A stretch of 63,245 nt of DNA, the filler included, from Asterionella formosa (lineage: Eukaryota): the NCBI GenBank assembly GCA_002256025.1. It is 10 parts of 10 records of this genome, joined end to end, with 100 filler letters (N's around TTAATTAATTAA, not from the genome) between each part and the next. Parts side by side here need not be neighbours in the genome. Positions count along the whole stretch, not along the records: positions 25,387 to 31,621 come from NKIB01012775.1; 9 more parts are not named here. The stretch is one strand, 5' to 3'. A program made the translations under genes and the position numbers. Shown here one piece after another: positions 8,904 to 63,245 of the stretch. Every line of letters starts with the position of its first letter. The stretch's first letter is position 1. The notes beneath the pieces were generated by a model. That model was not told the DNA's origin and did no database searches. It worked only from the letters and a program-made list of their open reading frames with translations.

Positions 8904-9169
8904 GATTAATTGAATTCTCTTGATTGCTTGATCAATTTCTTGATATTCACAAGGAACATGGAAGTTGTGAAATATAGCTACTCTGCGCCAAAGTACTGCG
9001 GATCTCTAATTTTTCTTGATTGACGAACGTTTTCATGAATTGTATGTGAGCAATGTACCGGTAGGCGCGTTGAATGGATTCAGAGGAAACTTCGATTCAG
9101 AGGAAACTTCCCTCCAGAGGATGGGAAGGACGATGACAGTCTTCATTGCGATCTATCATTTTTTACTAT

Positions 9170-9530
9170 GAAGTACCGGTACCGGTATTCCGAAATCTAA
9201 CAAGAAGCAACAAAGAAAACAGGAATTGAGCAATTTACCAGCTATTTTGTTCGTAGTAGCAAACCGTCTTTTACCGCACCTGGCTTCCCCAGTACCAGGT
9301 CGTACCTGGTACCAGTACCATGCGCCCGTATCAGTCTCCTTCAAACCACGGTGCCCGTCATTGCAGCACCAGGTACTGTACCTGGTACGATCGTCCCAAC
9401 GAATCCTGATGTCGGCTGGCAGCTACTCCGAGTACCAGGTAACTGTATTGCGGATCAGTACCTGGTACCAGGTACCCGGGACTATTATGGTACCAGGTGC
9501 CCGACCAGCGGTGTACATGCCGGCATCCTA
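9170..9530. repeat. Cluster of TA-CCWGG-TA / TA-CCGG-TA units between the divergent amidase and thioesterase genes
   Basis: GTACCGGTACCGGTA, GTACCAGGT, GTACCTGGTACCAGTACC and GTACCTGGTACCAGGTACCCGGG are read directly. Confidence 0.85.
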
Positions 9531-11954: not shown

Positions 11955-12602
11955 CCGTATACTTCATTGTCCTGGACCCCCCCTATGGTTGCTGGACCCC
12001 CCTGTACATTTTTCTCGAGGTGGAACCAAACACCCAATAATTTTCTTGTCATAGACAAAGTAACGTGCCATAATTCTTTTTGTCCTCGTAGGCACTAGTA
12101 TGTAATAATTTAGCTACCATTTTGCGATTCTTTTGTACATACAAAACACAAGAGACGACAGGTACTGGCTGTGAGCAGCTGGAGAATCCTTCATGATGTT
12201 GTCGCAACCTTGACCATGACGAAAATACCAATTATCTCCACGAAAATAGAGAACGACGCTTTGCTACTTGCTACCTGTATTAAGAATGACATCGAAAATA
12301 CAATCGTAAAAGAAGTAAAGTAATAACACTAATAATGACAACGAAAATTGAGATCGCCGATAACAACATGAAGTCGCGTTTTTCTTGCGAGGTGAAGAAC
12401 TCTCTCATTTTTCACGAGACGGAAATAATTGTCATATTAATACATCTTAGAAAAATGTGCGCTATCCTGTAGAACTAAAGAAATTTACTTAGGTCCATTA
12501 TAAGGGAAATCTCTTCATTGTCCTGGGCCCCCCTTAAGTAAAATCAGTCAAATTCAGTCACGGCAGTGTACATTGGGGGGTCCAGGACAATGAAGTATAC
12601 GG
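11955..12602. mobile_element. 648-bp MITE with perfect 28-bp TIRs and TA target-site duplication (Tc1/mariner-pogo type)
   Basis: TA|CCGTATACTTCATTGTCCTGGACCCCCC (11955-11982) and its exact reverse complement at 12575-12602|TA. Internal subterminal copies of the TIR motif are present. No transposase. Confidence 0.92.
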
Positions 12603-15958: not shown

Positions 15959-16085
15959 GGCTCCCGTTTAGTAGTAGCTTGTATTGCAGCAGTTGCAGAA
16001 TCTAGGAAATGGCAACACAAGACGGGCTACTTTCCGATCTTGCTTGTTCGCTCAATTGTCTTGCGTTAAAAATAAGTTTAAATAT

Positions 16086-17260
16086 AGTACCTGGTACCTG
16101 GTACCGGTATGCATATATTCTTATGTGTGTACTGTACGAGATGAGAACAACATATGTAGCAAGAAATATGGCTGCATTCATACAAGAAACAAGACTATCG
16201 GTACCTGGTAATAGTATGAGCTCTAAGTACCAGACAGACTACGGGTATACGAGCCGTGACGTTCCGCCACGACCCAAACTTGAATCGTTACTTACACACC
16301 TGTACACTTTGCGGGCATTTTCAGAGTCGACATTTTGAGATACACATATATACCGGTATGAATACACAAAAGTACACCGGTAATTGAGCTTGCTCGCAGG
16401 CGCCAACAGTAAATGTGTGATATACATACTACCGGTATACTATGTAGCGGTATGGTACCTGGTACCAGGTGTACCGGGTACAGCACCTGGTATCCTGATA
16501 CCGGTTTATTGATACCGGTAGGTATAAGCTGGTTCTGGTATATATATACAGGTAGAGTACCTCGTACCTTGTACCTGGCACCTGGACCTGTTACAAGGTG
16601 AGGGAGTACCTGATACCCTGCTACTGTTACCTACCAGGTACCAGGAACCTCTCATCCTCGATCGTAGAAAAAAAGCAACATTTCAAGACCATGTAGGAGT
16701 ACCATGTACCGGTATATGTGTGTGCAAAGTATACCAAGTACAATACCCGGTACCTGGTACCTGGTACTCTACCATTATATATATACAAAGACACATCACA
16801 GAATGTCAGGAACCTTTAATGGGATCCCTAGCAAATCGACTATTTCGTAAATGATGGGGTAAATCCCCGATTCTATATAGCTCCTCATGCTCATGAAACA
16901 TGGTCAACGAACACAAGAATCCGAGCAAAGCATTCAATTCTACCTTGTATGTACTGTATGGGATGCCATGAAGTATTTTCCCTTCCAAGCAGCCATTCAT
17001 ATTTACTCCTACATGTCTAGTGTATACATGTATGTATAAACACCTATGTAGGCATTCATGTATTTTTACATGGGCTGAAAGGCAATGGATGACATGATCA
17101 TGACGGCATCATCATATAACTAGTGCTAATAATACCAGGGTGGGATAACCTTACAGTACTACCTGGCACCATGGTACTGGGGTATACTCCTAGCACATAT
17201 CTGGTACTGGTTCCAGCTATCAGGGGTATCAGGTACCATCAGGTAAAGCCCACCTGCTAC
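16086..17260. repeat. Dense TA-CCWGG-TA / TA-CCGG-TA cluster upstream of the desaturase-like gene
   Basis: For example GTACCTGGTACCTGGTACCGGTA at about 16087 and GGTACCTGGTACCAGGTGTACCGGGTA at about 16454. Confidence 0.85.
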
Positions 17261-19519: not shown

Positions 19520-19918
19520 ATTGTTTTTCTTGCCTACTTAGTTCACATTTTTGGCGTCAAGGAGCTCAATCCGAGCAAGCATGCCTTTTAACAGCACCTT
19601 GACTCTGTCCTTTTTGTCAAAGTTTTGCCGCCAAAGTACCGGTACCGTATGCAAGTACCAATACATCATCACGCAAGCAAAAATGGGAAGATTTCTAAGG
19701 GGGCGGACGAGGCAATTGTCATCATGATTTGCGTTGTTATAGGTATCTATCTGAATCAAGTTTTGCAACGGACACCATTGATATACTTTTTCATCCCCGC
19801 TATCTGAAATTCAAGTTATCCTTAAATGGTATATTAAAAGCGAGCGAGCACATTCGGTATCAAAATTTTGGAATTCGTATAATGTTGAAATATATAGCGC
19901 CTCCTCTAGCGCGCTCCA

Positions 19919-19992
19919 GTACTGCCCTGGAATGACAGGTCAAGATCTTTCTCGCGCCATTCGTTTTGCATATTATTCTGCTATATAAATTC
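19919..19992. repeat. Short dispersed repeat (probable TE end); inverted copy at 30481-30551
   Basis: GTACTGCCCTGGAATGACAGGTCAAGATCTTTCTCGCGC matches the reverse complement of 30513-30551 at 38/39 positions. Similarity continues through ATTATTCTGCTA. Confidence 0.8.
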
Positions 19993-19994
19993 TA

Positions 19995-21758
19995 AAGTGG
20001 AATCTCCCTATAAGATACACTCCCTATGGGATACACCCTCTATATAAGATACACTTTTCTCAATGAAGCAACCCCAAATTTGGAAATCCTTGTAAGGGAC
20101 CCTCTCTATACGATACACCCTCCTCCGTTAGATACACTTCTTCTAAAAAAATGGTTATTCTGACCTCCTTATAACATAAAAATGAGCACCGCACAGTCTG
20201 CACTCAGTTTGAGCCAGTAGTTTTTACCAGGTACATGGGACCTGGTACCGGGACCAGGTACCAGGTACCTATTTTGCATGCTTTGATCATCTCAATCACT
20301 GCTGAGGACTGACAATCTTCAGTACTACTACGTGCGTAGGCAGGTGATTGAAGCATAGTATGTAGTGATGTACCACATTGTCGATGATCTGGTGGTACCA
20401 TGGTACTATCACTTGTGACATTACTTGTTTATGACACCATTTATAATAATTTTTAGTTTTATACTTATCTGAAATGAACTTTGATCATTTCTTGTCCATT
20501 TGCTTCCATTCTTTCACTCATTTCAATCTCCAAGATTCAGACATCATCGCCATTGGGAACTGAAGGAACTAATGTGAAGGTCATGTTGGAAATGAAGTTA
20601 AAGCATAAAAGTGTTTCCATTGATACAAAAATAGCAGCAATAAAGCTGCTTGGTGAAGGGAATAGTGTTAGAGAAGTTGCTTTTAAACTTGCCGTAAGCA
20701 TTGGAACTGTTCAAAAAGCAAAGAAAAGGAAGGAGGACTTCCTGATGGAAGGTGAATTGATGTGATCAATGAAAATGGCTTGCCTTAATAGCGGTACGGA
20801 AATCAACACAGTATCATGGAGATGGTTTTGTAGTGCTTGCGCAAATGGATATCCAATTAGTGGACCCATCCTATGAAGCAAAGCTTTATTGATTGCCAAA
20901 GCATTCAAAGCAGAAAATAATTTTAAGGCATCTATTGGCTGGCTTGAAAAATGGAAGAAAAGACACAATGTCAAATCCTATGCTATTTGCGGAGAGTCTG
21001 GGAATGTAGACATGATTGATAAGGCTGAAAAATGGAAAGCTTTCTTGGCTAGTTTGTGTTATGAATATATCCCAGCCGACATTTTCAACATGGATGAGAC
21101 TGGATACTTTGATCATGCTCTCCCCAATTCAACACTCAATCAAGTATCAAAATCACGCAAAGGATGAAAATTAGCAAAGGATCGAGTTACAGTTGCTTTG
21201 GCATGCAGTACAGCTACGGAAAAGCTGCAGCCGCTGATAATTGGGAAATCCAAGAAGCCTCATTGTTTTCGAGAGATTGAATTGAGCCGCCTTGGAGTTC
21301 TTTGCAAGTCAAATAGCGAAAAATGGATGACAAATCATATTTTCAATGAGTATCTATTGGATTTGAATGTATAAATTGCTTCTCAGAAAAGGAAGATTCT
21401 TTTATTCTTAGATAACGCCCCTGTCCACATTGTTGATGAGGAAACAAGCTCAAGGCTAACACATGTTAAGGTTTAATTCTTCCCTCCAATTTTGACAAGT
21501 TTGTTGCAATGGTTGCCTGGGGAAGTGTTATGACTAAAACAATTCAAAAATGATTTAAAGCATGTGGGTTTGATAAAGTATGTGATGAAGAAAATGTATC
21601 AGTACCAGAGGAAACTGAAAATGGCTGATGGAAAGGCTTGAGGAAGTTGATGTTCTTTATGTAGTACAAGATTGTATTGGCGAATATGCAATCCCATGTG
21701 CCGAGACTTTAATTGCAAATTTGGTTGCTGAATATATTGATGAAGGGGATGAGGAGGA
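19995..21758 (+). mobile_element. pogo/Tigger (CENP-B-like) DNA transposon; transposase pseudogene at about 20583-21560
   Basis: Left end TA|AAGTGGAATCTCCCTATAAGATACAC with five GATACAC subterminal repeats. Protein motifs: HTH region, FKASIGWLEKWKKRH, IFNMDETG, KDRVTV, LIIGKSKKP, ILLFLDNAPVH. In-frame stops and an internal deletion. Confidence 0.9.
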
Positions 21759-24700
21759 TGACAGCCCTTATTATGCCAATAGAAGAATCGCTACACCGCA
21801 GCATGACTCGCCATCAATCAACTGCCAAAAGAGACCCAACCACATCCGCTTGGACCCAATCCGGCAGCAAGTTACAAATCGAATCGTCAATACAAAAATG
21901 AAAAAGGGGGGACCCGGAAACCCATCAGATGCTTTAATACCACAGCCTTACCATCACACGTACGTCAAACATTTAAATACCCAATGATAATGCACCCCTG
22001 GCACCAGGGAGCAAGGGCACATGAGAAATGCATAGTTCTCACACTCCCTTATTCGAGCAGGCAACTTGCGCCAAATCAAGAACACTACCAACGTTGCAAA
22101 GCTTTGCGATGACGCAGAAAAGCCGCCAACGGGAGCGGCTTGGTGAACATGTCAGCCACTTGATGCTGCGTATCGACATGCTCTATAAATATGAGCTTTC
22201 TTCGAACATAATCACGGAAATGATGGTACTTAATGTTGATGTGCTTGGTGCGGGGACGCATCTTGGGAGTGCGAGCTAATTCCAACGCACCGGAATTATC
22301 CTCAAATAGTGTGCAACGAACGGCAGGCACCGAAATCACATCGTGATCAAGTTTTCGCTTGACTTCTTCCAGCAATTGCATCAACGGAATGGTATCTTGC
22401 AATGACTGACTTAGACACACATACTCTGCCTCAGTGGTGGATAGAGCCACCTCTGTCTGCAATTTGGAAGCCCACAGCACCGGGCAGGAAGCGTACGTAA
22501 TTGCATACCCTGAGCGGGATTTGGCCGTCATTGTGTCACTAATGCTTGTCTCTTTGTTCCAATTTCCACAGAAATCCAAGTGATCATCGGGATGCAGGAG
22601 AATACCTTGGTGGGATGTGCCAATGAGGTAACGCACAATATTTCGGACTGCCACCGCGTGGGAGGCCTTCGGATTGGCAGAGAAGCGGGCGTACTGATGT
22701 AACGCATACGCAATATCCAGGCGAGTCGATTTCTCAAGGAAGTTCAGTTTTCCAATAACCGAGTGATAGGACCAATATTCCGAAAAATCATCTCCATCAA
22801 GATCCCTCTGCAATATCACAGTGGACGATGCTGGAACGCCCTTGGACTTGGTCTTGTTGGTAAAACCAATGTTGTCGGCAATGGAGGCAATCAGGTGTGG
22901 CTGTGTTAACGATATGATGGAGTCAACAGGAGAGGAAGTCACCTTAATACCCAGATAATCCGAGATGTCTCCTTTGTCGGTCAAGTTAAAAATCGACCGT
23001 ATGAGCTCGATGCATTCATCAATCAACTTTGACTCTGGGCTTATGAAAATTCCATCATCTACATAGACCATAAATATAGTCCTTCCTCTATAGTAGATAC
23101 ACTTGTCAGCATCACTCTGTACGAAACCAATACCCAGTAGCCCCTTAGTCAAATGCAAGGACCAAGTACGACCTGCCTGTCTCTGACCATAAATGTTCTT
23201 CAGAATCTTGAGACAATGACCATTCCGACCTCCTTCCGGTAGCTCAAACCCATGCGGTATTTCCATATATAAGTCGCACTCCACATTGGCCTGCGGGTAT
23301 GCAAGTGTAAAATCTATCTGCCTGGTACTCCATCCATGCATTAAGGACAGGACCAACATAAAGCGGATGGGTGGCCATGACAGGGTAGCCGCATAGGTCT
23401 CCCAGTAGTTCACCCCATGTTCCTGTTTCCCGCCATGTAGATTTGGCCTGGCCTTCCACTTGTACACCTCCCTTGAGGCTATCCGGCGTTTCCTCTTCAT
23501 AGCCCACACACATGGCAGAATTTCGGTTCTGAGTGGCATGGCTGACTTCGGAATCACCTTCCAATGTTGATTATTGTGATGCGCCATGACCTCGGCTTCC
23601 ATGGCGGCTATAAATTGCTTTCTGTCTGGCTCCCTTAGAGCCTGGTCGGCGCGTAATGTATAAGGATCGGATGATCTCGCTGCAAATGCAATTGGGTCTT
23701 CCATCATAACCTGCTGCAGGTGATACTCTTCATCCCCATCCACATTCTCGAGCACCGATGCCTTGCACAGCAGGCCCTGTTCAAAACTCTCTTGTAGCCG
23801 GTGTGACGGCTTGTGTCGTTGTGACCAACGCACTCCTGAAGAGGCGGACTCCCGTGACGCAAGGAGTGGGAGTCCCGCCCCGGTTTCCTCCAGCATCACC
23901 TCAGAAGTATCCAGGAGAGCCTCATGTGGGACCCCATCCTCATTCACGACTGGAACAACCAGGGGTGGCGGTCCCTGTGGGGAGAGGAGGAGAGGGAGCG
24001 GGAAAATCTCTTGACTTAAACTGTCCGCGACGACCGGCTTGGCGCGCCCTCGTGATCCTTTGGCTCCGGACGACTTCTCGGAGAAATGCGTGGCGGAGAG
24101 CCAGCCAATCTCATATACGTCCTCCTTGGTTCCCACGGTTTCGAAGAGGTCGTCGAACGCAACATGAAATTGCGGTGACACCAGCCCCGTCGATATGTTT
24201 AACACTAGAGCAACGGACGGTGCATGCTGTGGGGACTGCCCTAGATACAAGCCTACCCTTGCTCTCTTAAACCACTTAGGTATGTGTTTCCCGGCAGCCA
24301 GCTCGTTAGACAGAACGTACGTAGGGCACCCAAAAGGGCGAAATGACCCCAACTTAGGGGACACGTCAGTCCGGGAAAACACGCTTGCGGCGGACCTTCC
24401 GTCCACACGACGCGGAGCGCTAATAAGTGCATCATTAGCCGTACGCAGTGCATATGGCCACAAGCAATTCGACATGACTCGTGGCCATCGGGCAGTGGCG
24501 TGCAATAACGCAGTACGCGCCAAGTCCTGTACCGGTAAGTCCCTACCGGTAATTCGTTTCTCTGCCACACCATTTTGAAAATGTGCGTTGACACCTCAAT
24601 ACGAAATTCTCTGGCGCTGCTCGGCAATGTCCTGCAAGAACAGCGTGTCCGCAAATCGACCGTTGTCAGCATGGTAGTGAATCACCTTCACGCCGTGTGA

Positions 24701-25286
24701 CTCGAAGTATCGCTCGAAGGCCCTTTTTGCCTTCACGGTGTCATCCGAGGTCAGCGATCGCTGCAAGTGGACAAATGAAAGGCGGCTGAAATGGTCGACA
24801 AAGATTGTTGCGGCCATATATCGCTGAGTGGTGGGAACTCCTTTGAGTTGCCCAATCAGCCCTGGTGTAGGGGACTGCATCTGGTCCACTGAGACGCACT
24901 GTCCAGGGAAAGTCGCCGTTCCGCCTCCCACCTTGCTTGGTGGTGCTTTTGACCTCCACGCCCTTCGAGTCGCCTTTCCATAGTACATGCAGGCAGCGCA
25001 TTTGGGAATGCGGGCCTGCAAGAGTTTCTTGGGAATAAATCCTGTAGCAGCCATGCTCCGCAGTTGGCTGAAAGGCAGATGGCCAAGCCGGTAGTGGAGA
25101 CGAAGCAATTCCGTGGTAGGCGTCAGGGTATCCTGATCTTCAGTCTCAGTTGGCTTGGCGGATGCGTCATGAAACACTGTTTCAAGGTGAGACTCTGGAA
25201 TGTTTGTTCCACTGGCATCTCCCTTAACGGACGGATCATGTGAATTCTCACTCCTACCACCCTTCTCTGCCGGGCGCGGCGGGGGG
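21759..25286 (-). mobile_element. Ty1/copia (CoDi-like) retrotransposon: integrase-RT-RNase H (25177-22085), PPT and putative 3' LTR (22041-21759); defective, 5' end off-contig
   Basis: LHYRLGH...CAAC zinc motif, VSVDQ, HADNGRF, QNGVAEKR, RQIDFTLAYPQ, IYGQRQAGR, VYVDDG, SKLQTEVALSTTEAEY, RTKHI, ADMFTKPL. In-frame TGA at 24596 and loss of the YVDAD motif. PPT AAGGGAGTG is followed by TGAGA...TGTCA. The LTR outer end is less certain. Confidence 0.93.
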
Positions 25287-25386: not shown

Positions 25387-25897
25387 CAGAAATCATGTAC
25401 TGAACCACCAAATCATGCGTGTCCAAAGGGGAATGATGGGACACTTGAGACTTGGCAGCCATGGGAGTGTGGGGGGTCTGTTTCCGTTGTGCAGAAGCCG
25501 TCTGTGTGACGAAGCTTTGGCCTTGACCTCCATTGAGTGCATCGAAGCATTCCGAGTTCCCATTGCTTGTCGATGGAACTGCTGCAGCTGACGGTTCGGA
25601 GCACTGTTCGAAATTGGCAAAGTTAGCGGTATTCGGCTTGACAGTTTTCTTTTTCTTCTTGACTGGATTCCCAAATTCATCCACCTTGACCTTCTTCTCC
25701 CTTATGAGATTTCCCTCGTTGTCGTACTGCTTGATTCGTGTGCTCGCCTTTTTGGACTTGAGCTTTTTGGCTTTCTTCGTCACTGGTGCAAGCAATGGCT
25801 CCAGTGAATTGGCGTCAGCAGAACCCATCACTTGACCTGTTGCAGTGTTCATTGTTGCAGTACCAGTTGTCGGCCACTGAGATGGCTCAAACGACAT
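25387..25897 (-). CDS. Hypothetical protein, Lys-rich low-complexity N-terminal part, truncated by contig end
   Basis: ATG-initiated frame open to the contig edge, with gene-like GC/CpG content. No recognisable domain. Confidence 0.55.
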
Positions 25898-27361
25898 TCT
25901 TCCCTATGAGTAAATGAAGAGCGGCAGATGAGCAGTCAACAGACCCAGGAATCCCAAGCAAAGGAATGGCGTCAGTACGTATTAGGATATATTTAGTGTC
26001 TGTATTGTACGTGTAGAGCAAAAAATATGTCGCTTTACAATCGTTGTTTTGTCATTCTTCGTATTTTATACATATTTCATAGGTGATATAATTGATTTCT
26101 ATTTTTCTTAAATACATTCCTCGATGGCTCAGGCTTCTCATTCAAATGTCTGATTCGACATATTTACGGTTCTTGTATAAATCTAAATATTTATACCGGT
26201 ACTGTTACATGCACGCCTCCTTTAATTACGTAGTCTGTTAGTAATTACAACACAAGTGCCTGAACTTATGATCATCCTAAGCAAACATGGGTAATGATTG
26301 AAAATAGTGACCCCGGAACAGTGCCTACAATAGTAATACATAGGGATCCGAAGCATTTTGAAAGTTCTGCCCTCAATATGTTCTACATGTAGGTCGGATA
26401 GTAACGATGACGATTCCGACGAAGCTAGTGCCAGGAGAACTGGGACGACGATGATATTGAAGATGGCTGTATCTATATATTTACACAAGGGAATGAATGT
26501 CATTATTGGCGACTCAAGCCGAGTATTTCATATTCACATATGGGGGTGGCTGGCTGAAGGAAACATTTCCTTGCAATGATTTAGGTTTGTTGACTTCTTG
26601 GTGTTTGTACTTTGGTTTTAAAATCGTTTTTTAATGGTGTTACCGGTATCCTTTTTACAAAATTTATGTTTTTCCGAATTTCTGAAATTCCATACCGGTA
26701 GGTAATGCACCATATTCCCATGAAGAGACCAGTTACTGCTTACCAACCAAGGTACTTTTTGTAAGAGGGATGTCCCTACCGGTAGTAGTTATCGTGATGT
26801 CCACCTGGTACTCAATGACTCCATGTTGCATTTATGTCATAATCTATACCGGTACCGGTAGACTCGTATTCTGAGGAATACATACACAAGAAGTCTTTTA
26901 TCATTCTTTGGATGCGACATCCATGACTTTACAGAAGTGACAAAAAGTGTATTGTTCTGTTTTATGTGTCTATATAAATGGAGACTGGTTCGCTCACAGG
27001 TGCAGATACATATTTAATTAGGCCATTCTTTTTTATGATGATTCCGAATTTGTGGTATCATTTCCGGGTTGTGTAAAAATGACAATTGTTTGGTATCAAA
27101 ACACGGTATCAGCAACTGTAACGTGATGGTATTAATTCAGTATCATTGATTTAAAAATGATACGCAAATTATTGGTGTGATGCAAACGAACGGAAAGAGG
27201 CACGACCTGCACAAAGAAATTTTACTGTGGTTTGGCTCGCCATAAAAGGAGGACTGATATTAATTTCAAATATTTGATACTTATCCCATTACCGGTCATC
27301 AAAGCCGACATACAAATCCCTAAAGGTCATCAAAATACGCCAAGTTGTTTTCGACTATTAC

Positions 27362-29650
27362 CTAATTCGATTTAAGTTTTTCAGCCGGTACGTTTTCCAA
27401 GTTCTTGGCTTCTCCGCTCCAATACCTATCGACAATAAAGTAAGTTCCAAAGAGTATCAAAAAGATAGGAATGAGTCCAAAGTACCACTTATCCCAGCTT
27501 TCCCGTCCGGCAATCATGGGGGCAATCATCAATGAGATGATGCTCATCAGCTTGATTAGAATGTTCAAAGCAGGACCAGAGGTATCCTTGAAAGGATCGC
27601 CAACGGTGTCTCCCACAACGCATGCTTTGTGGATATCGGTTCCTTTTCCGCCTTTGGCACCTTCAATTTCAATGTACTTCTTAGCATTGTCCCAAGCACC
27701 GCCGGCATTTGCCATCATGATGGCTAACATCATTCCAGAGGTAATGGCGCCACCCAACATTCCAGTCAGACAACGTGGTCCAACCAAGAATCCAACAGCA
27801 AGTGGGGACAGAATGGCATACAATCCGGGAAGAATCATCTCCTCCACGGAGGAATGAGTTGAAATTGCAATGCACTTATCTGAATCTGCTTCTGCTGTTC
27901 CTTCTCGGAGTCCAGGAATCTCGGCAAACTGACGACGTACTTCAACAATAATGGCACCTGCTGCCTTCTGCACAGAAAGCATAGTCAAGGCTGAAAACAA
28001 AAACGGAAGCATGGCTCCAATTAATGCTCCACTCAAGACTACAGGATCTCCAATATCTACCACATCGATATTCGCCTTGGCCTTAAAGGCTGCCAAGAGT
28101 GACAGAGCTGTCAAGACAGCCGAAGCAATGGCAAATCCCTTTCCAGTTGCGGCAGTTGTGTTTCCAAGAGCATCGAGAGCATCCATAGTGTCACGAACAC
28201 GTCCTTCCATTTTGGCCATTTCAGCAATGCCACCCGCATTGTCTGCAATGGGCCCATATGCGTCTGTTGCCAGAGTCACGCCCAATGTTGACAACATGCC
28301 CACGGCTGACATGGCAATGCCATATTCTCCAGCGAGAGCGTTGCATGCAAGAATGGTGGCGACAATAATCAATACTGGAAAAACACAAGAGATCATTCCA
28401 ATTCCAAGGCCTTGAATGATGACAGTGGCAGGTCCAGTGACAGCGGCGTCGGTAATTGACTGTACTGGATAGAAGGAGTAGGAAGTGAAGTATTCTGTGA
28501 CTTGCCCAATGAGAACACCAGCCAATAGTCCCAAGAGGATACATCCAAAGATATTCCACCCTTCTTGTTCTCTTCCAGGGAAAAGTTGAGAACATAATAC
28601 TTTTGAAACAAGAACCACCACGAAGGACGCAATCAAAATTCCCTTGTTGAGTGCTGCCAATAGGTCTTTTTGCGACGCTCCATCCTTTGTTCCCACAGCA
28701 AAGAATCCAATGACACTGGCCAGAATTCCTCCTCCACTAATCCATATTGGTAGCATTATCAATGCAACATCTCCATTGGCCAATGCCATGGCAGCAATGA
28801 TGCTTCCAACGTATGATTCAAACAAATCGGCCCCCATCCCAGCCACATCTCCAACATTGTCACCGACCAAATCAGCAATGACAGCAGGATTTCTGACATC
28901 ATCTTCTGGAATGTCCATTTCCACTTTTCCAACCAAATCAGCTCCCACATCCGCCGCCTTGGTAAAGATACCCCCCGCAACACGTGCAAAGAGGGCAATG
29001 GACGATGCTCCAAACCCAAATCCTGCCAAGGCATCGGTGGCCAGCAGCAGTTTGTTTACGTTATCATGATGATCGTCATTGCCATATCCCTGCACCAAAA
29101 TCGCAAACACAATGGAAAGTCCCGTCAATCCAATTCCTACTACTGTAAATCCCATGACAGCACCTCCAGTAAATGCCACCCGCAAGGCGGATGCCAACCC
29201 ATGTTGATCTGCAGCTTGTGTTGTCTTGACATTGGTGTCTGTAGCGACTTGCATCCCTCCCCAGCCAGCTCCAGCAGATAGAACGGCTCCTACCAAGAAG
29301 CTGCCCCCATATCGAATCCCATCCTTCCATGTTGCGCTTGTGCCGCCGTACAAGAGTGCCAGACTTGGGACCACCATGGCCACAAAGTATGCCAAGTAGG
29401 TGTATTCAGTAACTAGGAATGCTCGACTTCCTGATTGAATACGTTGGGAGATGTCATTCATGACCTCGTTGCCTTTTGGGACAGATGATAGTCGAAACTT
29501 CAAGAAGAAAACCATGAGGATCCCAACAAGTCCAGCGCCCACTCCAAAGGAAACATTTGCCATGGGATCCTCCACATTGCAGGGGAAGCCAGAGAAGCCA
29601 GAGGCAAGGAAACAGGGAGCATTGACGGCCAAGGTTGCTGTTGTTGCCAT
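27362..29650 (-). CDS. Membrane-integral cation-translocating pyrophosphatase (mPPase), K+-dependent type, 762 aa
   Basis: GGIFTKAADVGADLVGKVE, VGDNVGD, EYFTS, DAYGPIADNAGGIAEM, GNTTAA, GGAWDNAKKYIE and GDTVGDPFKDTSGP. The first ATG is at 29650; the ORF track start is a GTG. Confidence 0.97.
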   Translation of the reverse strand: MATTATLAVNAPCFLASGFSGFPCNVEDPMANVSFGVGAGLVGILMVFFLKFRLSSVPKGNEVMNDISQRIQSGSRAFLVTEYTYLAYFVAMVVPSLALLYGGTSATWKDGIRYGGSFLVGAVLSAGAGWGGMQVATDTNVKTTQAADQHGLASALRVAFTGGAVMGFTVVGIGLTGLSIVFAILVQGYGNDDHHDNVNKLLLATDALAGFGFGASSIALFARVAGGIFTKAADVGADLVGKVEMDIPEDDVRNPAVIADLVGDNVGDVAGMGADLFESYVGSIIAAMALANGDVALIMLPIWISGGGILASVIGFFAVGTKDGASQKDLLAALNKGILIASFVVVLVSKVLCSQLFPGREQEGWNIFGCILLGLLAGVLIGQVTEYFTSYSFYPVQSITDAAVTGPATVIIQGLGIGMISCVFPVLIIVATILACNALAGEYGIAMSAVGMLSTLGVTLATDAYGPIADNAGGIAEMAKMEGRVRDTMDALDALGNTTAATGKGFAIASAVLTALSLLAAFKAKANIDVVDIGDPVVLSGALIGAMLPFLFSALTMLSVQKAAGAIIVEVRRQFAEIPGLREGTAEADSDKCIAISTHSSVEEMILPGLYAILSPLAVGFLVGPRCLTGMLGGAITSGMMLAIMMANAGGAWDNAKKYIEIEGAKGGKGTDIHKACVVGDTVGDPFKDTSGPALNILIKLMSIISLMIAPMIAGRESWDKWYFGLIPIFLILFGTYFIVDRYWSGEAKNLENVPAEKLKSN

Positions 29651-29869
29651 GATGATGGATGCAGCTAGTGTCACGGCACGCTGTGATTATAATGGTTCAA
29701 GGCCAAGGCGAACAGTAATGATGTGTTTACTTTTTTGTGACTACCGGCATGAATCTCCTTTTGAATATCATCACAAAATGATCATCGTGGACGACGACGA
29801 AGAAACGCTGGATGTAACATGTATATTCATATATGAATAAAGTATTGCATAAAATTGTACAGTCATGAT

Positions 29870-30557
29870 ATACCGGCATATTGTAGACCAGTCCCTGGTC
29901 CCTGGTACCAGTTACCAGTACAGCGAGCAGACGTACAGCCATACCTATGACGTATGTACTTGCTTTCCATATATTGTGTGCAGACCCATCTGTGATGGTA
30001 CCAGGTACCTGGTACCTGGTACCAGGTACCAGGTACAGTCATCATCTCTACAGATTTCTTCTTGCCTGTGGAAGGTCCGGCAATCGAGAGATTTAGCTTA
30101 ATATTTTCCCAAGGACTAAACGTGTTTTACCTGACCTTCTTCCCTTCTTCTGAATACCGGTACGAGGTACCGGTATACCGGAAGTATCACCGCTACTTAA
30201 CCACACAGGCAGGAGGGCACTCCGGAGGGTAACAGGGTACTTGGTACCAGGTACCAGACCTGGTTACCGGGACCTGATTCCGCACCACTACAGATGTAGG
30301 AGTAGCCGGTAGGCAGAAGAATACCGGTATTGCAGTGATCGGAAGTACGACCCCCATATGTACGTACCGGTATGGTTAATGCAGACTGTGTCTGTTAGGC
30401 TGTTGATGTCGATGAGTGTCCGAAGGCTAGATGTAGTCTGAGGAATGTCTCCGGGTACAAGATATACCGGTAGAGCGACAGGATTTATTTACCGGTAGCA
30501 GAATAATGAGCAGCGCGAGAAAGATCTTGACCGGTCATTCCAGGGCAGTACCTGGTA
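29870..30557. repeat. TA-CCWGG-TA array cluster upstream of the mPPase; pure (TACCWGG)5-TA run at 29999-30035
   Basis: TA CCAGG TA CCTGG TA CCTGG TA CCAGG TA CCAGG TA, plus many TACCGGTA units. Confidence 0.9.
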
Positions 30558-31621
30558 CCAGTAAAAAGCTGCTGTGACCCACTAAAAAAATTTGGAACCG
30601 CTGTGACCCACTGAACAGGAGAAAAACACGGTTTGACCCTCCCAAATGCAGATTTGTTAATTTTAAAACTTCGATCCCAATCTTGAGCATATACACTTTA
30701 AGGCTATGTCATTAGATATAAGTTTATAGCAATTGGTTTCTCCTAAAATATTGGTTGAAAAGTGCAATCGACGAAAATATTGCCAGAACACGGATTACCC
30801 CATGTTTTGAGGATTCATTATTATATGATATTTGCAGCTGTATACAAAAATGTCGCCTTCGATTTATTTGTTGTCTGATTCCTGTCATATCTTTATCCCT
30901 GTCACTTGATAGTGCCTAAGTAACTTGATCACTATATACTGGTGCGCCAGCCAAGTAGACCCAAATACCATCATCACCCATACACTGGAAAGGAAATGTG
31001 TACCTGGTACATACCAGTATACAGTTTTTAGCTCATAATATGCATCCAAACTATGGCAAAAAATCTACTGTGCCTTTGGGCAAGGCAGCTCAGTCTATTA
31101 GCAGCACAAACAAAGCCAGAATGATTGAACATTGCCTATTGAACATTTCTACAAATATGGAAGTGTTGAAAGCGAACAATAATGGAAAACTACCATATGG
31201 CTCAATTTCTCGTGCTGTGCACGATGTACAAGAACTTGTCCCATGGGTGACTACACAGAAAGTGAAATACTTTCTAAGGAAAATGAGATCATCTGGTGGC
31301 ACCAGTACCAGCATGGACAAACAGCCTGAGGAGGATGTGCATGAAGAATCACAAGAAAGCGAAATATCTATGCTGACAATGGAAGGTGTAGAAAATTACA
31401 GCTATAGCAGAAAAAATCATCATCATTCTTCCATTACTACTATGATTATGTCGGCAAGTTCTAGTTTGCCTCCTGCCAGGCAGCACTACTACTGCATCAA
31501 CTGAAAGCAGCAGCATCATTTCTGCCACTATAACCCTGCCCTATGGTGGTCGTCCAAAGGGAACAACTGCAGTAGCCAGCTCCATCATGGCAGAAAAAGT
31601 GAAAGAATGTATTTCCAATTC
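30558..31621 (+). mobile_element. 5' end of a DDE_1-type transposon (same family as 17260-18955): terminal repeat plus transposase N-terminus
   Basis: Terminus TA|CCAGTAAAAAGCTGCTGTGACCCA with an internal GCTGTGACCCACT repeat. ORF LKANNNGKLPYGSISRAV...VPWVT is followed by GGRPKGTT. A homologous fragment lies at 61490-61713. Confidence 0.7.
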
Positions 31622-32820: not shown

Positions 32821-34801
32821 AAGTTGAACACAGCCTAGGTTCATCAAGCGTCATAAGATGCTTGGTTACCTCCTGGACATGCAAGACATGTGGCTTTGAA
32901 AACCAGGTCATAGATTTGTGGCAAGCAACATCTCGGTCACCTCCATATTGCTCGAGCGGACTGAACAATTAAGGTTGGCGCTTAGTACGTAGCAATACGT
33001 AGGAGTACGGTACAGCAGTGACTAGTCGTTATATCACGCAGACATTGGCGATAGAGTGGAAGTGTCTGTTAGTTAGCGATAGCGAAAGCAAGAAGTGAGT
33101 GCTCGATCTTGCTCACTCTTTTTACAAATAATTCTTTTCATACATCTTTACCTAAGTTAGTCACTATGTCGGATTCCACGTAGCGATTATGATTTAGTAT
33201 ACCTGGTACCGGTAGAGTAGTGTACTGGAGTACGAGGGTTTCCCGCATGCGGTTACCGTTAAGTACATTTTTTATCTGGGTGTAGCCAGAGCTGGTTATT
33301 ATTTTATCTGGGTTCCCTGATGGGGAAGACATTTGAGAAACTGAACAAAATTGGTATTTTTGAGGTATGAAGCAATGATAAATAGATGAATACAGATGAT
33401 TGTATTTATATACAAATATATTAACATATAATTGTACTCATTAAGGCCATAAACACATGTGTAGTATATATTATCTTGTAGACTATTATTGTGGTTTCTC
33501 CATGCACATCTAAGCCACAAAATAGGCCACTTTTCTTTTCGAAACTTCATCTACTCCAGTACATAGGAGTTTTGATTAAATGTGGTACTTCACATGAATT
33601 AATGCCACTCTTCCCATAAATAAGCAGGTTACTTTTAACGATTTCATGTGAAGTTTTACCGCGTTCATCATGTAAGGTTTCTTTCACAATGAACTTAGAA
33701 CTCAAGACTGCATCAGTTGCTTGATGTTTCAAATAATTCATTTCAAAATCATGGATGATTTGTCACTTACGACATGCATCTTCATTTATGAAATAGTAAG
33801 GATATTTGTAGTGTCTTATTTCAGGCATGCTGGAAAATCAACAGTTTCTGGTTGCTGTGCTCTTCACGTATCATGTCATGTGCACTTATTGTAGTGAACA
33901 ATATTAATCTTCCTGTTTTCATGTGATTTTTCACAATCATATAGTGATTTCCAAGACGGAACTACCGGTAGTTGATATTATAACTAATTACTCTAAAAGT
34001 TCAAGATACACTTTTTAGAGGGTAAGCAATTCATTGCGAAAGACAACTTCAATTTAGGAAAAGTACAAATATTTATGGTGTGTGTCGATGTCCCAACAAG
34101 CCTCCTCTATTGGTTTATTGATGGGTTAACACAGGGACCAATTTTTACCTTATTGGAATTTTTTGACCCCCTATTGGAGGATCATTTTGACAACATTTTC
34201 GAAGATTGATGTTTACCAATCATGTCATTTCAGCTTATTGGCCATTGACGTTTTCGATTTCTTGGATTAGGGTTGCGATAAATTTAGCTGATTTTTACCT
34301 CCAATAGCTAAGGTCCGATTTTCCCCTTCTTAGGCCTAAAAGCCTTCTCGGAGTTCAAAAAACGGTTATCATAGGGGATAGCAATAACTATTCTTGGGTT
34401 TAAGTGTTCCATATTAGAATCGAACTTCCAATGATTTGGCTAATTGACTTTTTTTACATAGTATGAAAATACTGTGCCACTTAGTGTAAAATACCCTTGA
34501 TCCTATATGCATGATACTTTTTATTTGCAGAAGATACTGATGTAGCTGATTGGTCCTCTTTATCGCCATTTGTTGAAAAAACCATTTCTTGCTCTTGCCT
34601 TGTGGGTCATTAAGTGTGCAAGAGTCTGGTGGGGATGGGGAGGGATTATCATCAGTGGTAAGGGGAGTGGGCTTAGAAAATGCACTGGATGATGGTTGAA
34701 TATTATTTTTCGACTGTTTAAGTGCTCTTTTCGATGAATTAGCAAGTTCTTGTTTTTGATTCAGTGCTATAGAAAGGAAGGCGAAAACTGAAATAAGTAT
34801 C

Positions 34802-35672
34802 GGCAGGCGATGAGAGGAGCTGCTGGCGACAAGAGAGTTTGTGTTAAAAACAGACATGGCAGTGAGAGTCTTTGTCAAGAGTATGTAAAGTGGCGTGAGT
34901 AGACAGAGTAGTAGCTAAAAATTGGTGGCATCAGAATAATAATCTCTTGAGGTTCATTTCATTAGGGCTGATTAAAATAAAAAACTTTTCTCTAAAAAAA
35001 GGTTTACTATGTATATATAGATATAGATAACAACTGTCAAAAATGGAGCTACCAGCAGATCAAAAGGAAATGTTAAGCATCATCCTTGCAGCCGGCCGGA
35101 TACCATATCGCTGTGATTAGGTATGAATGATGGAGAATATGTCATGTATACAGAAAAATGATACATATATCCATTTTGTTACCTTCCAGAAACAGAATTG
35201 AATGCTGCCTAATTCATAGCTAGAAAAAGGGGGACGACAACTGCAATATGTATTGGCGGGCGATGAGCAGAGCTGCTGGCGACAAGAGAGTTTGCGTGAA
35301 AAAAGACATGGCAGCGAGAGTCGTTGTCATCAGCACCATGTAAAGTGGCGTATGCAGTAGACAGAGTAGAAGCTAAAAATAGTTGGCATCAGAATAATAA
35401 TATCTTGAGGTTTATTTTTTAGGGGTGATAAAATAAAATAAAATTCTTAAAAAAGAGATGTACTTTGTATAAAACAACTGTCGAAAATGGAGCAACTAGC
35501 AGAACAAAAGGAAATGTTAAGCATCATCCTTGCAGCTGGCCAGATATAATATCGCTGTGATTAATCGTGGCAAAAATCGTGGTATGAATGATGGAGAATT
35601 TCTCATGTAGACAGAGAAATGATACATGTATCCATTTTGTTACCTTCCAGAAACAGAGTTGAATGCTATCTA
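34802..35672 (+). repeat. Diverged tandem duplication of about 410 bp (34802-35212 and 35255-35672)
   Basis: Both copies share GAGCTGCTGGCGACAAGAGAGTTTG, GGCATCAGAATAATAAT, AAAAGGAAATGTTAAGCATCATCCTTGCAG and TCCATTTTGTTACCTTCCAGAAACAGA. Confidence 0.9.
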
Positions 35673-38177: not shown

Positions 38178-38404
38178 CTTCTTGACCTTTCACACAGTTT
38201 GTCACTTGAGTTCTACACAACCTTGGATCCTTCTACAATCTGTAAAATTCTGGAAATTTCTAGTTTTCATTACCTTCCATTTAAGACTCAATCTCTTATA
38301 TATATCACTACATCATCAAGTGATATACTGACTGGAATCAATCGATTTTTTTAACTTCCATGTCATGACAATGATATACCCGGTATAACAACAACCTCTG
38401 CTGA

Positions 38405-38790
38405 CGACCTGGTGGTACCTGGTACCTGGTACCAGTACCAGGTCGTACCTTGGCTATACTCCGAGAACAGGGCACTTACCGGTACCTGGTACCTGGTACA
38501 GTACTTAATAACAACTGGTGCCAGGAACACGACTCAGACGCACCTCCGACGAAAAAATGGTTAGTCATCAGATCAGTTCTACCGGACAAAGTACCAAATT
38601 CTATGTAGCTCCACCGGACGATCGTCGGATAGCTTTTCTTTGAGACATGAACAAAATGCCTATTGCTTACCGGTGTACCAGGTACCTGGTACCATCAAGA
38701 CCAACACGGTGAAGCTATCTTTGTGATTTTCGGTTCAATTTATGCTGAAGATCACCTTTGGACGATTGTCTGGTACCCGTACCTGTAGCT
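38405..38790. repeat. TA-CCWGG-TA cluster with no obvious adjacent intact gene
   Basis: GGTACCTGGTACCTGGTACCAGTACCAGGT, TTACCGGTACCTGGTACCTGGTACAGTA and GTACCAGGTACCTGGTACC. Confidence 0.8.
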
Positions 38791-40096: not shown

Positions 40097-40400
40097 CTTC
40101 TATAAGGGCTAACTTCTTGGGTACCAGGTACCCTCAAAATATAAATCCTATGCAGCAATAGTAAAAATGTGATCAGTGATATGTATGATATTGCAAAAAC
40201 AGTAGATTATATATATTGGTACCCTGGTAGATTGTTGTTGCATCTGGAATGATAATGACTGTGACCAATAAATATGATGTTTCAAATGCTGCTTGTATGT
40301 AATATTGGCAAGGCTATCAGGGGGTAGTGGTTGTGCTCATCCACATAATTACTTCATAGGAGGAAAAAGCTTCATTCAGATAATCTATTCTTTTTTGCAC

Positions 40401-45107: not shown

Positions 45108-45318
45108 AGATTATTGGACTTGACCAGGAATGATCATTATATAGTAATTTCATAGGTTCCTTAATATTATTCTTTGAATAAACATTACAGTGTGAATCAA
45201 TTTCATTCCAAAGCTACCGTATTCAAACTATTTCCAATAGATTTGCAATGATACAATGCTAATCTAGTTCATTAATTCGCTCGCTCGCATGTCTTTTGTA
45301 GATCTCGGTAGTTATTGC

Positions 45319-46469: not shown

Positions 46470-46712
46470 GGTGAGCTTCGGACGTTGGTGAAAATGTCAT
46501 AAACAAACAGTACATTCCTCCAAGCGGAGGCAAGAAATCGTTCCCTTGCCTAACTTCAACAAAGCTAACCTAGTACCGCTACTCAATTCATTTACCCCTG
46601 CATACCGCTACCGGTATTCGAATATAGTCTTAGTCTATAGTACCAGTACCTAGTACCAGGTAGACAACGAGGTACCATGTGCCTGTTTGGAACTTGGTGG
46701 TATGTGTAAGTA

Positions 46713-47105
46713 CCGTATAATTCAGTATCCGCACGTGATAACTACATTATAAGCAGGATGGAAACACTGGAAACTACCCGGGGAGCTCGAAGACAAGGCT
46801 ACCTGTGCAGGACACCAACGGAGGTAATGCAGACTCTGCAGATGGTGAGAACACATCAAAATTCTTTGTTTTTATGAAGAGCGGTTTGGACAGGTGTTGT
46901 TGACTGTTGATCCTCTTCTGGAGCTGTAGTCTGAACAGCACCTGATCAGGCTGGTTGCCAACTGTTAGCAACAGAGAAGAAGGGACCCCCTGCAGAGGTT
47001 GCTGGCCCCTCCTGTACAACCATATTCCTGTACCCCTTGAAGTAAAATCAGTCAAATTCAGTCACAGCAGAGTACATTGCAGGGTCCAAGACACTGAATT
47101 TTATG
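46713..47105. mobile_element. Internally deleted and interrupted derivative of the 11955-12602 MITE
   Basis: TA|CCGTATAATTCAGTATCC at 46713, GGACCCCC...GGTTGCTGG...CCTGTACA at about 46983, and AAGTAAAATCAGTCAAATTCAGTCAC...GGGTCCAAGACACTGAA at the right end. Confidence 0.75.
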
Positions 47106-48302
47106 TTATACTATAGAATGATTCCTGATGGAATAAATAATGGTAGTCGACCGCACAGACAATTCAAACTATCATTTTGCTGGCATGATATGTATCATAT
47201 GACTGATCCCAGTATGCGCTGGCTGTGTTGTCTTTGTTCTCCCTTTGAATGTAATACAGTTGTATCATATGCCGGTCATAGAACCATAACAGCCAAGGTG
47301 ATCATAGCAAGCCTCGACTCTTGCATTCCTTGACATAACAGTATGATGTGGGAAAAAAGTGATAATCCTACTAGTACATTTTGACAGACCGTCAGTCAAT
47401 ACAGTACCAGGTAACAGATCTCACACAAACATATCACCAGCAGTGCACATCATTCATATTATTAAAAGTACCTGGTACTAGCTAATACCAGGAACCAGGA
47501 ACTGCCAGCTTCAGCTACAATTATATGTACTACCTTTCGACTAAAAATCTTTAAAAGTAATAAAACAATCAAAACTTGATGTGAGTACAAAATGCTCATT
47601 TGTTAGGCAATTCATTTTACTCAACTAATAAGTAATTAGTTTTGATCGAATGTATCAAGCCATGAAAATCTATTTTTCCAAAGGAATTTTTTTATCCTAG
47701 CACTCAACAGCCATCAGGAATATCAGAGACAAGCTACAATTGTAGTTATGCCTTTGAGGCTTTAAAACTCAGACTTGTAAGGGTGGGATAGATAAAAAGA
47801 GTTTAAGGAACAAAAAAGAAATGTCAAAACCACAACATAATCATTGCAACCTGATAACATAAATTTTCAAACATGAGACAAGAAAGTGGGCACTGATGGA
47901 TATGCTTGGTTTCGGCTGGCGTCTTCCACCTATTTATGGAGTTAGCAGCCACCTAATGAGTTACTATGACCATAACTATTCCTACCTGTGAGGACTAAAG
48001 GATGTTAGGACACCAATCAGTCACCTTTCAGGAGTATGTCAGTACGACACACCTGTACCTGGTACTACGGTCCGGTAGACCAGTTGGTTCGAATTGGTCG
48101 TTTTGCAATGGACGGGAAGCTCGCTCTATAGTAGCAACTTGTGGTCGTGTCATATATAAAACTTTCCGGTACTATTCTGTGTGTGCCATACTGTAGAACG
48201 AATGGATCGAATTTGGTTATCTTGAACAAGAGCAAACTGCACTTGAACGAGAAGCCCCCCATCATTAGCACCCTAAGCGTTCGCTCGTTCAAACATTTTG
48301 CC

Positions 48303-50700: not shown

Positions 50701-50984
50701 GGTTGCGGGTTTATTGCTATAGCAATTCTTATCAGTATCGGTACATAGTACCTGGTACGCTGATGCCAGGTACCGGGTACCAACTCCTACCACCATTGGG
50801 CATCCCCTTCATTCTACCACTTCAACCAGGTACCGGTACCAGGTACCGTATACGACCTCATTTGTGTCTGCACATCTGCATCTGCTCTCCTTCTCTGAAT
50901 GCATTTTCACGAATTCGAGCGAACGTAAGCCGACGAAGCACAACGAGCACGACTTGAGTGTCAATTGCTGCGTGGTCACTTATT

Positions 50985-55221: not shown

Positions 55222-55989
55222 TGAACGAATCGTAACGGAGGAGGGAGATATGTAAGGCAGCGGGCGATGTCAAAAGAATAATGATCTTGTGTCTAAAACC
55301 CCTGTATACTATGTACCAGATGGCACGAGGTACCAGGTACCTGCGCAAGTTGCGGTAATTTTGCTGACACTAAAGATTTGGCTATCTTTATCCCAGATTA
55401 AAATGTTAGTTTCAGCAAAATGTGGTCAAAGAAGTGTTTTATATATTATGAGGAAAACAAAGTTATAAATTTCTCATTTACCGTGAATTGCTTAGGTACT
55501 CGGAGTACCAGTTATAAATGGCTTTGAGCCACGTTATTATATCGTTTTCCGACTAATTCTAGAATTATGCTAAAATCGATCCCCTCTTCGCCCTTAGGCA
55601 CGACATAGGTGAGTTCATTACGCTACATGAGAATTAGGAAGATATTTTTTTACTTGAACCTATATATTTACTGAGATCTATCCATTTTAAAAGTGACAAA
55701 ACCGGTCGAAGTGACTCCAAGCCATTGATTCAAATTTTACCATACATGAAGTTATTTTTATAGGCAACAGTTGGAAAATATTATATCGCTTGCATTATTT
55801 GCAGTAGTTGCATCTTTCTTATACTGGTGGTGTTCCCATTTTATTTTTCGGTTCCATCAAAGACTACCCGAATTTTTTTCGCAGTAGTCATTGCATTGTT
55901 CTTAGACTGGTGGGCCACCCAGCAATCATATCTTGTCATGTAATAGGAGTGACCATGGGCGAATTGATGCCATTGCAGTTGCAACTGGT

Positions 55990-60859: not shown

Positions 60860-61180
60860 TACACCCGGGTACTACATAGCATAATAACCTACTTAGTATA
60901 TACCGGTAGAGTAACAACGTAAAAACTGGGGGGCATACCCCATGCCCAGCAATGCTACCAGGTACCTGGTACCTGGTACCGGTACCCTGGTAACAGTAGT
61001 TAGAACCAATACCCGCATTTAAATAACGGAACATGTTTGGGCTCACACGTACGTCCCAGGTACCACTGTTGTTTACCGGTAGTACCGGTAAGTGTCGAAC
61101 CGATATCCTAATGTAGGCTCTCTGCTACCGGTACTCTATTATTTTTGGACCAAGGACCTACCGGTATTCTACGACAGGTA
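60860..61180. repeat. TA-CCWGG-TA / TA-CCGG-TA cluster upstream of the E2-like gene
   Basis: TA CCAGG TA CCTGG TA CCTGG TA CCGG TA CCCTGG TA at 60956-60992, plus several TACCGGTA units. Confidence 0.88.
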
Positions 61181-63008: not shown

Positions 63009-63245
63009 CTGTATAATTCAGTGTTCTGGATCCCGCAAGAATGTACACTGCCATGACTAAATGTGACTGATTAAAATAAAAGGGGGTTCAAGAATATGGT
63101 GAGATTTCCCTTATAATAGACTTGAGTCAATTTTATCAGTTCTACAGAATGGCGCGCTTTTTTATAATAAATGTCATTATGATCGTTTTTTCCGTAGAGA
63201 GAAAATTGAGAAAGTTCTTCACTTTTCAAGAAAAACCCGACTTCA
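63009..63245 (-). mobile_element. One end of a diverged member of the 11955-12602 MITE family, cut by the window end
   Basis: Terminus TA|CTGTATAATTCAGTGTTCTGGATCCC. The reverse complement aligns to 12370-12602 (TGAAGTCG, GTGAAGAACT, CTGTAGAACT, TTATAAGGGAAATCTC, GGCAGTGTACATT). Confidence 0.8.

Follow-up and report, generated by a model that had tools for sequence, protein, structure and literature searches.

Scars left by the excision of Tc1/mariner-type transposons are the closest described counterparts of the short palindromic units TA-CCWGG-TA and TA-CCGG-TA (TACCGGTA; W is A or T) that cluster 5' of genes in the freshwater pennate diatom Asterionella formosa. The stretch of DNA analysed, referred to throughout as the window, is 63,245 bases long and comprises ten unrelated contigs of ~6.25 kb joined by linkers N44-TTAATTAATTAA-N44; the cluster first reported, at 29871..30557, lies 5' of the gene for an H+-pyrophosphatase. 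Tc1/mariner transposases make their cut in the non-transferred strand a few bases within the transposon and leave 3' overhangs. Joining of these ends keeps both TAs together with 2-4 nt from one terminus or the other, and for Sleeping Beauty the canonical scar is TACAGTA or TACTGTA (PMC6943129). Mariner and Stowaway scars likewise retain both target copies together with end bases (PMC4561436). Plant mariner elements target TA and have the terminal inverted repeat consensus CTCCCTC (PMC4423477, Table 1), and Stowaway scars take forms such as TACTCC...AGTA, with one case of a new insertion beside an old scar (PMC1925063).

The diatom units resemble these footprints in the presence of both TAs, in a filler that may correspond to 2-4 end nucleotides of a donor and in a middle base that may be either of two letters (PMC6943129). 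However, the footprints described in the papers cited are single scars at single donor sites, whereas the diatom units carry CCGG or CCWGG fillers, are enriched more than 100-fold, lie 5' of genes and are chained. A second diatom unit, TACTC(S)GAGTA (S is C or G, and optional), has a filler that matches the ends of plant mariner and Stowaway elements, which target TA and start with CTCC, and it resembles Stowaway scars (PMC1925063, PMC4561436, PMC4423477); in these sources such scars are rare and recorded locus by locus in grasses, whereas the diatom unit is a minor class within dense arrays. Micro- and minisatellites share with the diatom arrays the head-to-tail order of 6-7-nt units and polymorphism in copy number, but the diatom units also occur singly and scattered, have an unordered middle base and appear where there was no earlier repeat. 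The DNA replication-related element (DRE) of Drosophila is a palindromic core-promoter motif that is bound by a dimeric factor and strongly enriched just upstream of many unrelated genes. The diatom units share this upstream enrichment of a palindrome with DRE-like motifs and differ from them in their irregular number and position, their high turnover between strains and their origin by insertion; to our knowledge no protein that binds them has been described.

Palindromic units ahead of diatom genes

The units are considered to be, probably, scars from the excision of cut-and-paste elements of the Tc1/mariner type that target TA, concentrated in promoter DNA and expanded secondarily by slippage. 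At k = 6 to 9 no words of the window are over-represented more strongly than those of the unit family. TACCGGTA has 34 matches (mean 0.28 and maximum 3 in 100 dinucleotide-preserving shuffles) and TACCWGGTA 42 (mean 0.34, maximum 3, in as many shuffles of the same kind), and GGTACC is found 68 times against 10.5 expected from base composition. The reported cluster comprises a chain of five units (29999-30035), one CCWGG unit each at 30245 and 30549, and six copies of TACCGGTA, at 30155, 30168, 30322, 30365, 30465 and 30490. A first-pass annotation had placed similar units at nine other locations on unrelated contigs; units are present at all nine, and the window does consist of ten separate pieces of about 6.25 kb. 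The main clusters and their neighbouring genes, with strands given for open reading frames (ORFs), are as follows.

29871..30557, unstranded: reported cluster, 5' of the H+-pyrophosphatase gene
27362..29686, - strand: H+-translocating pyrophosphatase ORF (Pfam H_PPase, E = 8e-251), downstream of the reported cluster
9056..9497, unstranded: units clustered where the CN-hydrolase (7965-8756, -) and thioesterase-like (9681-10619, +) ORFs diverge, with TACTCCGAGTA at 9424
16088..16766, unstranded: unit cluster 5' of a fatty-acid desaturase ORF (14555-15967, -)
19637..20402, unstranded: units at 19637-19649 and 20225-20402, including TACCATGGTA at 20396
26194..26860, unstranded: six TACCGGTA units dispersed 3' of the pyrophosphatase gene, on the 5' side of the ORF at 25388-25903 (-)
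38380..38780, unstranded: unit cluster with no confident gene call nearby
46609..46679, unstranded: units 5' of a CREG-like ORF (45322-46371, -); a TA-flanked element ends 32 nt away
50749..50850, unstranded: units 5' of a protein kinase ORF (50958-53030, +)
55329..55507, unstranded: units 5' of a cobW-like ORF (53521-55269, -), with TACTCGGAGTA at 55497
60901..61166, unstranded: unit cluster 5' of a 2-oxoacid dehydrogenase E2 ORF (59066-60364, -)

Beyond the locations already annotated, clusters occur at 26194-26860, 38380-38780, 40120-40226, 42160-42175, 33200-33214, 47405-47477 and 48674-48689, and two units lie within a copia ORF at 24530-24551. The window has long, intron-free ORFs whose products are ordinary eukaryotic proteins, the host genes including those for H+-pyrophosphatase, seryl-tRNA synthetase, fatty-acid desaturase, a kinase, cobW, 2-oxoacid dehydrogenase E2 and CREG. 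The pyrophosphatase is 72-74% identical to proteins of pennate diatoms including Fragilaria and Cylindrotheca, its best named relatives. A Pfam scan covered 86 of the window's 121 ORFs of at least 90 aa, and the 11 host genes with Pfam support contain no unit in 15,346 nt of ORF, as the first-pass annotation had held for the long host ORFs. Their 5' flanks contain 56 units in 7,442 nt (7.5 per kb; eight are counted twice in a shared divergent promoter) and their 3' flanks six units in 10,946 nt, five of which also lie on the 5' side of the following gene, which has the same orientation. None of the three convergent gaps, at 45104-45322, 53030-53521 and 58736-59066, contains a unit.

Assembled contigs from three DNA runs (X2, X3, X7) and one RNA run (X9) were aligned to contig 5 (one 6.2-kb contig); the runs with a matching contig are mostly freshwater, lake or algae metagenomes and some are unlabelled. 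An X9 contig spans 27140-29686, and therefore the pyrophosphatase message as assembled ends about 185 nt before the first unit, although contigs cannot prove a start site. The cluster itself is nearly uncovered by X9 contigs, which is not counted as evidence that it is not transcribed. The ORF at 25388-25903 is matched by an RNA contig on 25387-25903.

The 5' bias extends to other pennate diatoms. A scan of metagenome contigs for three consecutive CCWGG units yielded at least 124 loci, and the figures that follow refer to the loci listed. Those with 58-69% G+C mostly hold little beyond a pure tandem of 3-7 CCWGG units each. About 40 with 38-50% G+C bear diatom-like ORFs (the only named relatives of one subtilase are from Seminavis and Cylindrotheca) and have numerous extra units. 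The total reaches 26 within 3 kb, and CCWGG accounts for nearly all of them and CCGG for few. Removal of overlapping or identical loci, of loci shorter than 1,500 nt and of loci with fewer than six units left 37, which had been picked for the chain and not for the orientation of its neighbours. The nearest ORFs of at least 150 aa turn their 5' end toward the chain in 38 instances and their 3' end in 11 (p = 1.4e-4), and the 16 loci with ORFs on both sides comprise nine divergent, seven tandem and no convergent pairs. The enrichment 5' of genes put forward in the first-pass annotation is thus found both in the flanks of the window's genes and in the 37 contigs that remained, without redundancy, from other pennate diatoms.

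A palindrome that lies strictly 5' of genes and is absent from gene bodies and convergent gaps could also be the site of a dimeric, lineage-specific transcription factor (half-sites TACC and GGTA, at a spacing of 0 or 1), selected in promoter clusters and expanded by slippage. Such sites would suit the wider palindrome of the CCWGG units, with G before and C after, as well as the units that precede a pogo-like element's transposase ORFs. Against this stand the number of units per promoter (1 to 13 in the window) and how far they lie from the ORF (about 60 to 900 nt), neither of which follows a rule. Moreover, positions are not conserved, since close strains differ by whole units; two units arose by insertion within the copia coding region; and an unrelated second palindrome has the same TA-C...G-TA build with an optional middle base. 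This explanation is regarded as unlikely; scars may nonetheless have come into use later as binding sites.

Insertion of units at TA and variation in unit number

The origin of individual units can be followed outside promoters, in a retrotransposon of the copia type, and variants in unit number occur at the reported cluster.

22088..25285, - strand: copia-type polyprotein (RVT_2, gag_pre-integrase) with a single in-frame stop at 24596-24598
24530-24537 and 24544-24551, unstranded: two TACCGGTA units in the copia ORF, each a derived 6-nt insertion at TA
30194..30195, unstranded: plain TA, where one X2 contig has TA-CCTGG-TA
29885..29898, unstranded: tandem pair of a degenerate 7-nt unit, with one copy fewer (7 nt at 29891) in one contig each of X2, X3 and X7

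The copia polyprotein is nearly intact, and along 666 residues it shares 94% identity with a cluster that groups 58 proteins. Sixteen homologues were asked for and 13 aligned, one at 94% and twelve at 57-71% identity, and all 13 lack exactly the two residues encoded by each unit (BLASTP). Removal of 6 nt at each unit restores a single TA in otherwise unrelated sequence, and the 94% copy shows only one other indel, of one residue, across 445 residues. It follows that each unit arose when 6 nt were newly inserted at a plain TA and the TA was duplicated, and the proposal of the first-pass annotation that each event duplicates a TA is borne out here together with its polarity. As there was no prior repeat and the site is coding and not a promoter, both slippage and promoter selection are excluded as the origin of these two units.

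Variation in unit number, with empty-site alleles, had also been anticipated and is found at 30194 in X2 and at 29891 in X2, X3 and X7, as well as in another diatom, whose near-identical contigs L043, L109 and L110 differ by four indels in 1.2 kb, all four of them unit-sized. Three of these are of 7 nt within chains, one of them duplicating a degenerate unit, and the fourth sets an isolated TA against TA-CCGG-TA. Other repeat pairs in the window show no unit indels.

The 7-nt differences between strains, the duplicated degenerate unit among them, and the tendency of neighbouring units to share W (108 of 180 in the diatom contigs listed) would be expected of ordinary micro- or minisatellites of periods 6 and 7, spread by slippage in non-coding DNA. 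This explanation has very little probability, given that many single units are scattered in unique sequence, that convergent 3' gaps contain none and that units arose in the copia ORF where no repeat existed; the other 72 of the 180 neighbours differ in W. In the window adjacent units have the same W seven times and a different W five times (7 of 12 the same), in keeping with the irregular A/T alternation noted at first, and in high-G+C tandems found by the same pattern 66 of 73 share it. From 108/180 as against 66/73 it follows that copying between neighbours contributes to the chains and does not dominate them.

That the clusters all derive, whole or in part, from a single dispersed repeat family, such as a miniature inverted-repeat transposable element (MITE) or a short interspersed nuclear element (SINE) that carries the chain, is the least probable explanation of all and one to which we attach almost no weight. 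High-copy repeats do adjoin the chain at 30496-31621. When the ten contigs are compared with one another, however, matches between clusters are confined to 21-41 nt of chain, and the 16-45 contigs of X2, X3 and X7 that leave each listed chain edge have no flank consensus (agreement 0.35-0.39). The divergent flanks mean that the chain occurs in very many unrelated contexts, and in X2 the depth, which for every run is contig depth summed over all organisms present, rises at the five-unit chain from about 163 to about 52,000. The clusters are thus not copies of one ordinary repeat family, an alternative that the first-pass annotation had named as a possible refutation.

Proposed transposon excision and candidate donors

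On the explanation by excision, a transposon of the Tc1/mariner/pogo kind would insert at TA and duplicate it, and on leaving would be cut a few bases inside each inverted end, with short 3' overhangs as the result. End joining in which the CC and GG of the overhangs pair would give TA-CCGG-TA, and one mismatched middle base, repaired either way, would give TA-CCWGG-TA, a step by which the unordered A/T is proposed to arise. Each scar would hold two TAs in place of one, both within GTAC, the filler having C as its first base and G as its last, and further hits nearby would build chains on which replication slippage gains or loses 7-nt units. The accumulation 5' of genes might reflect a preference of the elements for promoter DNA, possibly as open chromatin, combined with the intolerance of coding sequence to scars.

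The fillers between two TAs speak to the joining step. Enriched in the window are CCTGG, CCAGG, CCGG and CCAG and, weakly, CCCGG, CCGGG and CCCTGG, and the CCATGG filler at 20396 (TACCATGGTA) is present as annotated. In 128 kb of other diatoms' listed contigs the counts are CCAGG 268, CCTGG 248, CCAG 71, CTGG 67, CCGG 45, CCAGGG 20 and CCCTGG 10, with CTAG (117), CAG (72) and CTG (80) also enriched, whereas controls of reversed order number 0-3 (GGCC, TGGCC, GGCCA etc.) and, over the whole list, 0-8. Among all 2-8-nt fillers, those with C first and G last account for 32.6% in those contigs and 15.4% in the window, compared with 4-7% in a Markov control. This spectrum is what would be expected if i bases from one inverted end were joined to j bases from the other, though some of the variants could also stem from homopolymer slips of CCWGG. 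The second palindromic unit, as TA-CTCGAG-TA (10) and TA-CTCSGAG-TA (13), is found at 20 non-redundant listed loci and in the window's 5' regions at 9424-9434 and 55497-55507, and fits element ends that start with CTCC. hAT-type hairpin scars were dropped as a source, being palindromes of flanking DNA and not a fixed filler.

The bases around the units differ by class. Isolated CCWGG units in the window are preceded by G in 15 of 16 cases and followed by C in 12 of 16 (63% and 58% in the other diatoms' contigs), and TACCGGTA units show little flank preference. A preference for GTAC as target, the decay of chains or a protein site may each account for the bias, and the two target TAs in copia are not within GTAC. 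SBP-type GTAC sites were likewise set aside, TACCGGTA units being mostly without GTAC.

Elements with ends that fit these fillers are present in the same contigs, where some adjoin chains. They are TA-flanked inverted-repeat elements with ends starting CCG, CCAG and CTG, found in line with the comparison of fillers and element ends that the first-pass annotation had proposed.

11955..12602, unstranded: TE-C, a complete TA-flanked element with perfect inverted ends CCG...CGG, between TAs at 11953-11954 and 12603-12604
46713..47110, unstranded: diverged TE-C copy, its left end after the TA at 46711-46712 and its right end approximate
63009..63245, - strand: TE-C copy running off the contig edge, its end starting CTG after the TA at 63007-63008
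30558..31621, + strand: TE-b, a high-copy repeat with the end CCAG directly after the last TA of the chain, terminus uncertain
20478..21164, + strand: DNA-binding remnant of a pogo/Tc5-type transposase (CENP-B_N, HTH_Tnp_Tc5)

The ends of TE-C form a 30-nt inverted match of 100% including the TAs, and between the start of its diverged copy and the chain of the CREG promoter lie 32 nt. TE-b has a summed contig depth about 50-150 times baseline in X2 and its CCAG end recurs at 17260. The CCG...CGG ends of TE-C match the fillers CCGG, CCCGG and CCGGG, and the CCAG end of TE-b, if its uncertain terminus is placed correctly, matches CCAG and CCWGG; both are candidate donors. The end of a further repeat, at 30496-30551 and 19919-19983, abuts the same short chain, and the units at 20225-20402 lie between this repeat end and the pogo-like helix-turn-helix ORFs. 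No DDE domain is found among the 86 ORFs scanned. In the other diatoms, a search of the listed loci for TA-flanked inverted repeats was either swamped by chains or, once filtered, empty, and comparison across these loci gave low-complexity matches only and defined no donor element for a second diatom.

A duplicated TA with a fixed filler, as in the copia units, would equally be the signature of a TA-specific break-and-repair process that involves no mobile element, for instance a domesticated transposase or a nuclease that adds the filler. No allele occupied by an element is seen in the contigs of four runs for one 6.2-kb contig, and the very stereotyped fillers and the scale of the arrays suit a dedicated activity of this kind. 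On the other hand, the contigs do contain TA-flanked elements whose ends fit and which adjoin chains, and the second unit matches a different, known element end. We deem such a process improbable and know of no TA-cutting activity that adds a fixed filler.

Several observations weigh against the excision of transposons as the source of the units. The fillers CAG and CTG (6 and 7 against about 5.5 expected) and CCG (5 against 4.2), which had been included in the original vocabulary, are not enriched in the window, and the scheme of i + j joining is flexible enough to yield many fillers. A protein site GTACCWGGTAC explains the flanks of the CCWGG units equally well. The word TACCAGTA occurs 12 times on the + strand of the window and its reverse complement TACTGGTA not at all, though the orientation of the contigs should be arbitrary; in the other diatoms' listed contigs the two are balanced, at 71 and 67. 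Polarity is established for the CCGG unit and not for CCWGG, and the two isolated cases of presence or absence are unpolarised and could be deletions between short direct repeats (TAC...TAC, GGTA...GGTA). The excess of shared W and the duplicated degenerate unit clearly show a part for slippage, and 76 perfect units in 63 kb would call for very high excision rates or much secondary amplification. As for the donors, the terminus of TE-b is uncertain, its two copies share about 8 nt of chain-like sequence ahead of CCAG, and the other end of the short inverted-repeat element at 17260-17490 lacks a clear TA. Finally, no element-occupied allele at a scar site is seen among the contigs aligned to contig 5, an absence of little weight, as rare variants are lost from contigs.

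Transposon scars are usually regarded as rare, local curiosities. If the excision explanation holds, no words in a genome sample would be more over-represented than such scars, which would form a visible share of promoter DNA in at least two pennate diatom lineages, pointing to intense cut-and-paste traffic toward promoters and to a mutational process that places palindromes of 6-7 nt beside genes and generates regulatory differences between strains. A more far-reaching idea, which we hold to be rather doubtful, is that much of the DNA upstream of genes in pennate diatoms is written by TA transposons that seek out promoters, or by a transposase that the host has retained. The arrays would then be self-feeding, each scar offering two new GTAC targets, and the cell would adopt the palindromic, hairpin-prone CCGG/CCWGG-rich arrays as a general promoter architecture through nucleosome exclusion, methylation or factor binding, in which case the gain and loss of units would be a fast source of regulatory variation. 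Searches for diatom promoter motifs will meet these words first, and they should not be taken for transcription-factor sites untested. Among the matches listed, the literature on diatom promoter motifs, accessible chromatin, footprints and mariner/MITE elements gave no description of such arrays, subscription journals lying outside the search, and of 844 papers that contain the literal unit motifs the 40 listed concern primers and cloning sites only.

Folding, adjoining repeats and minor observations

As single strands the chains form hairpins far better than shuffles do, the segment 29990-30045 reaching -19.1 kcal/mol (z = -5.8); this potential follows from the palindromic form of the units and has no bearing yet on function. 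At 30150-30176 two TACCGGTA units make a larger perfect palindrome with 10-nt arms around GAG (-9.3 kcal/mol, z = -3.25). Among the metagenome loci listed, L005 has at 190-1450 a five-unit chain adjoining runs of a telomere-like 7-nt repeat of the CCCTAAA type. Regions of another diatom are rich in TACTAGTA, TAGTAGTA and TAGCTA runs, with 744 TA-G-TA and 672 TA-C-TA in the regions listed against about 170 expected.

The whole window gave no Rfam family reaching its gathering score, and no family at E <= 1 was found for 19780-20220. No Pfam family was found for four unnamed ORFs of the window or for the chain-spanning ORFs of loci L027 and L047. The repeat at 19890-19983 and 30496-30551 is common to two contigs in opposite orientation, and over 19890-20000 it folds no better than shuffles (z = -1.05). 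Sixteen loose ends at 30496-30551 continue as the contig-4 copy (agreement 0.8), and in X9 the summed contig depth of the bin 30379-30586 is about 125,000, compared with 538 for the pyrophosphatase message. The contig ends at 12705-13173 and 43608-44077, which have a copia-like C-terminal match, are 97% identical over 470 nt in opposite orientation and could represent a repeat or two haplotypes. Lastly, 34759-35667 consists of two tandem copies of about 450 nt with 80% identity.

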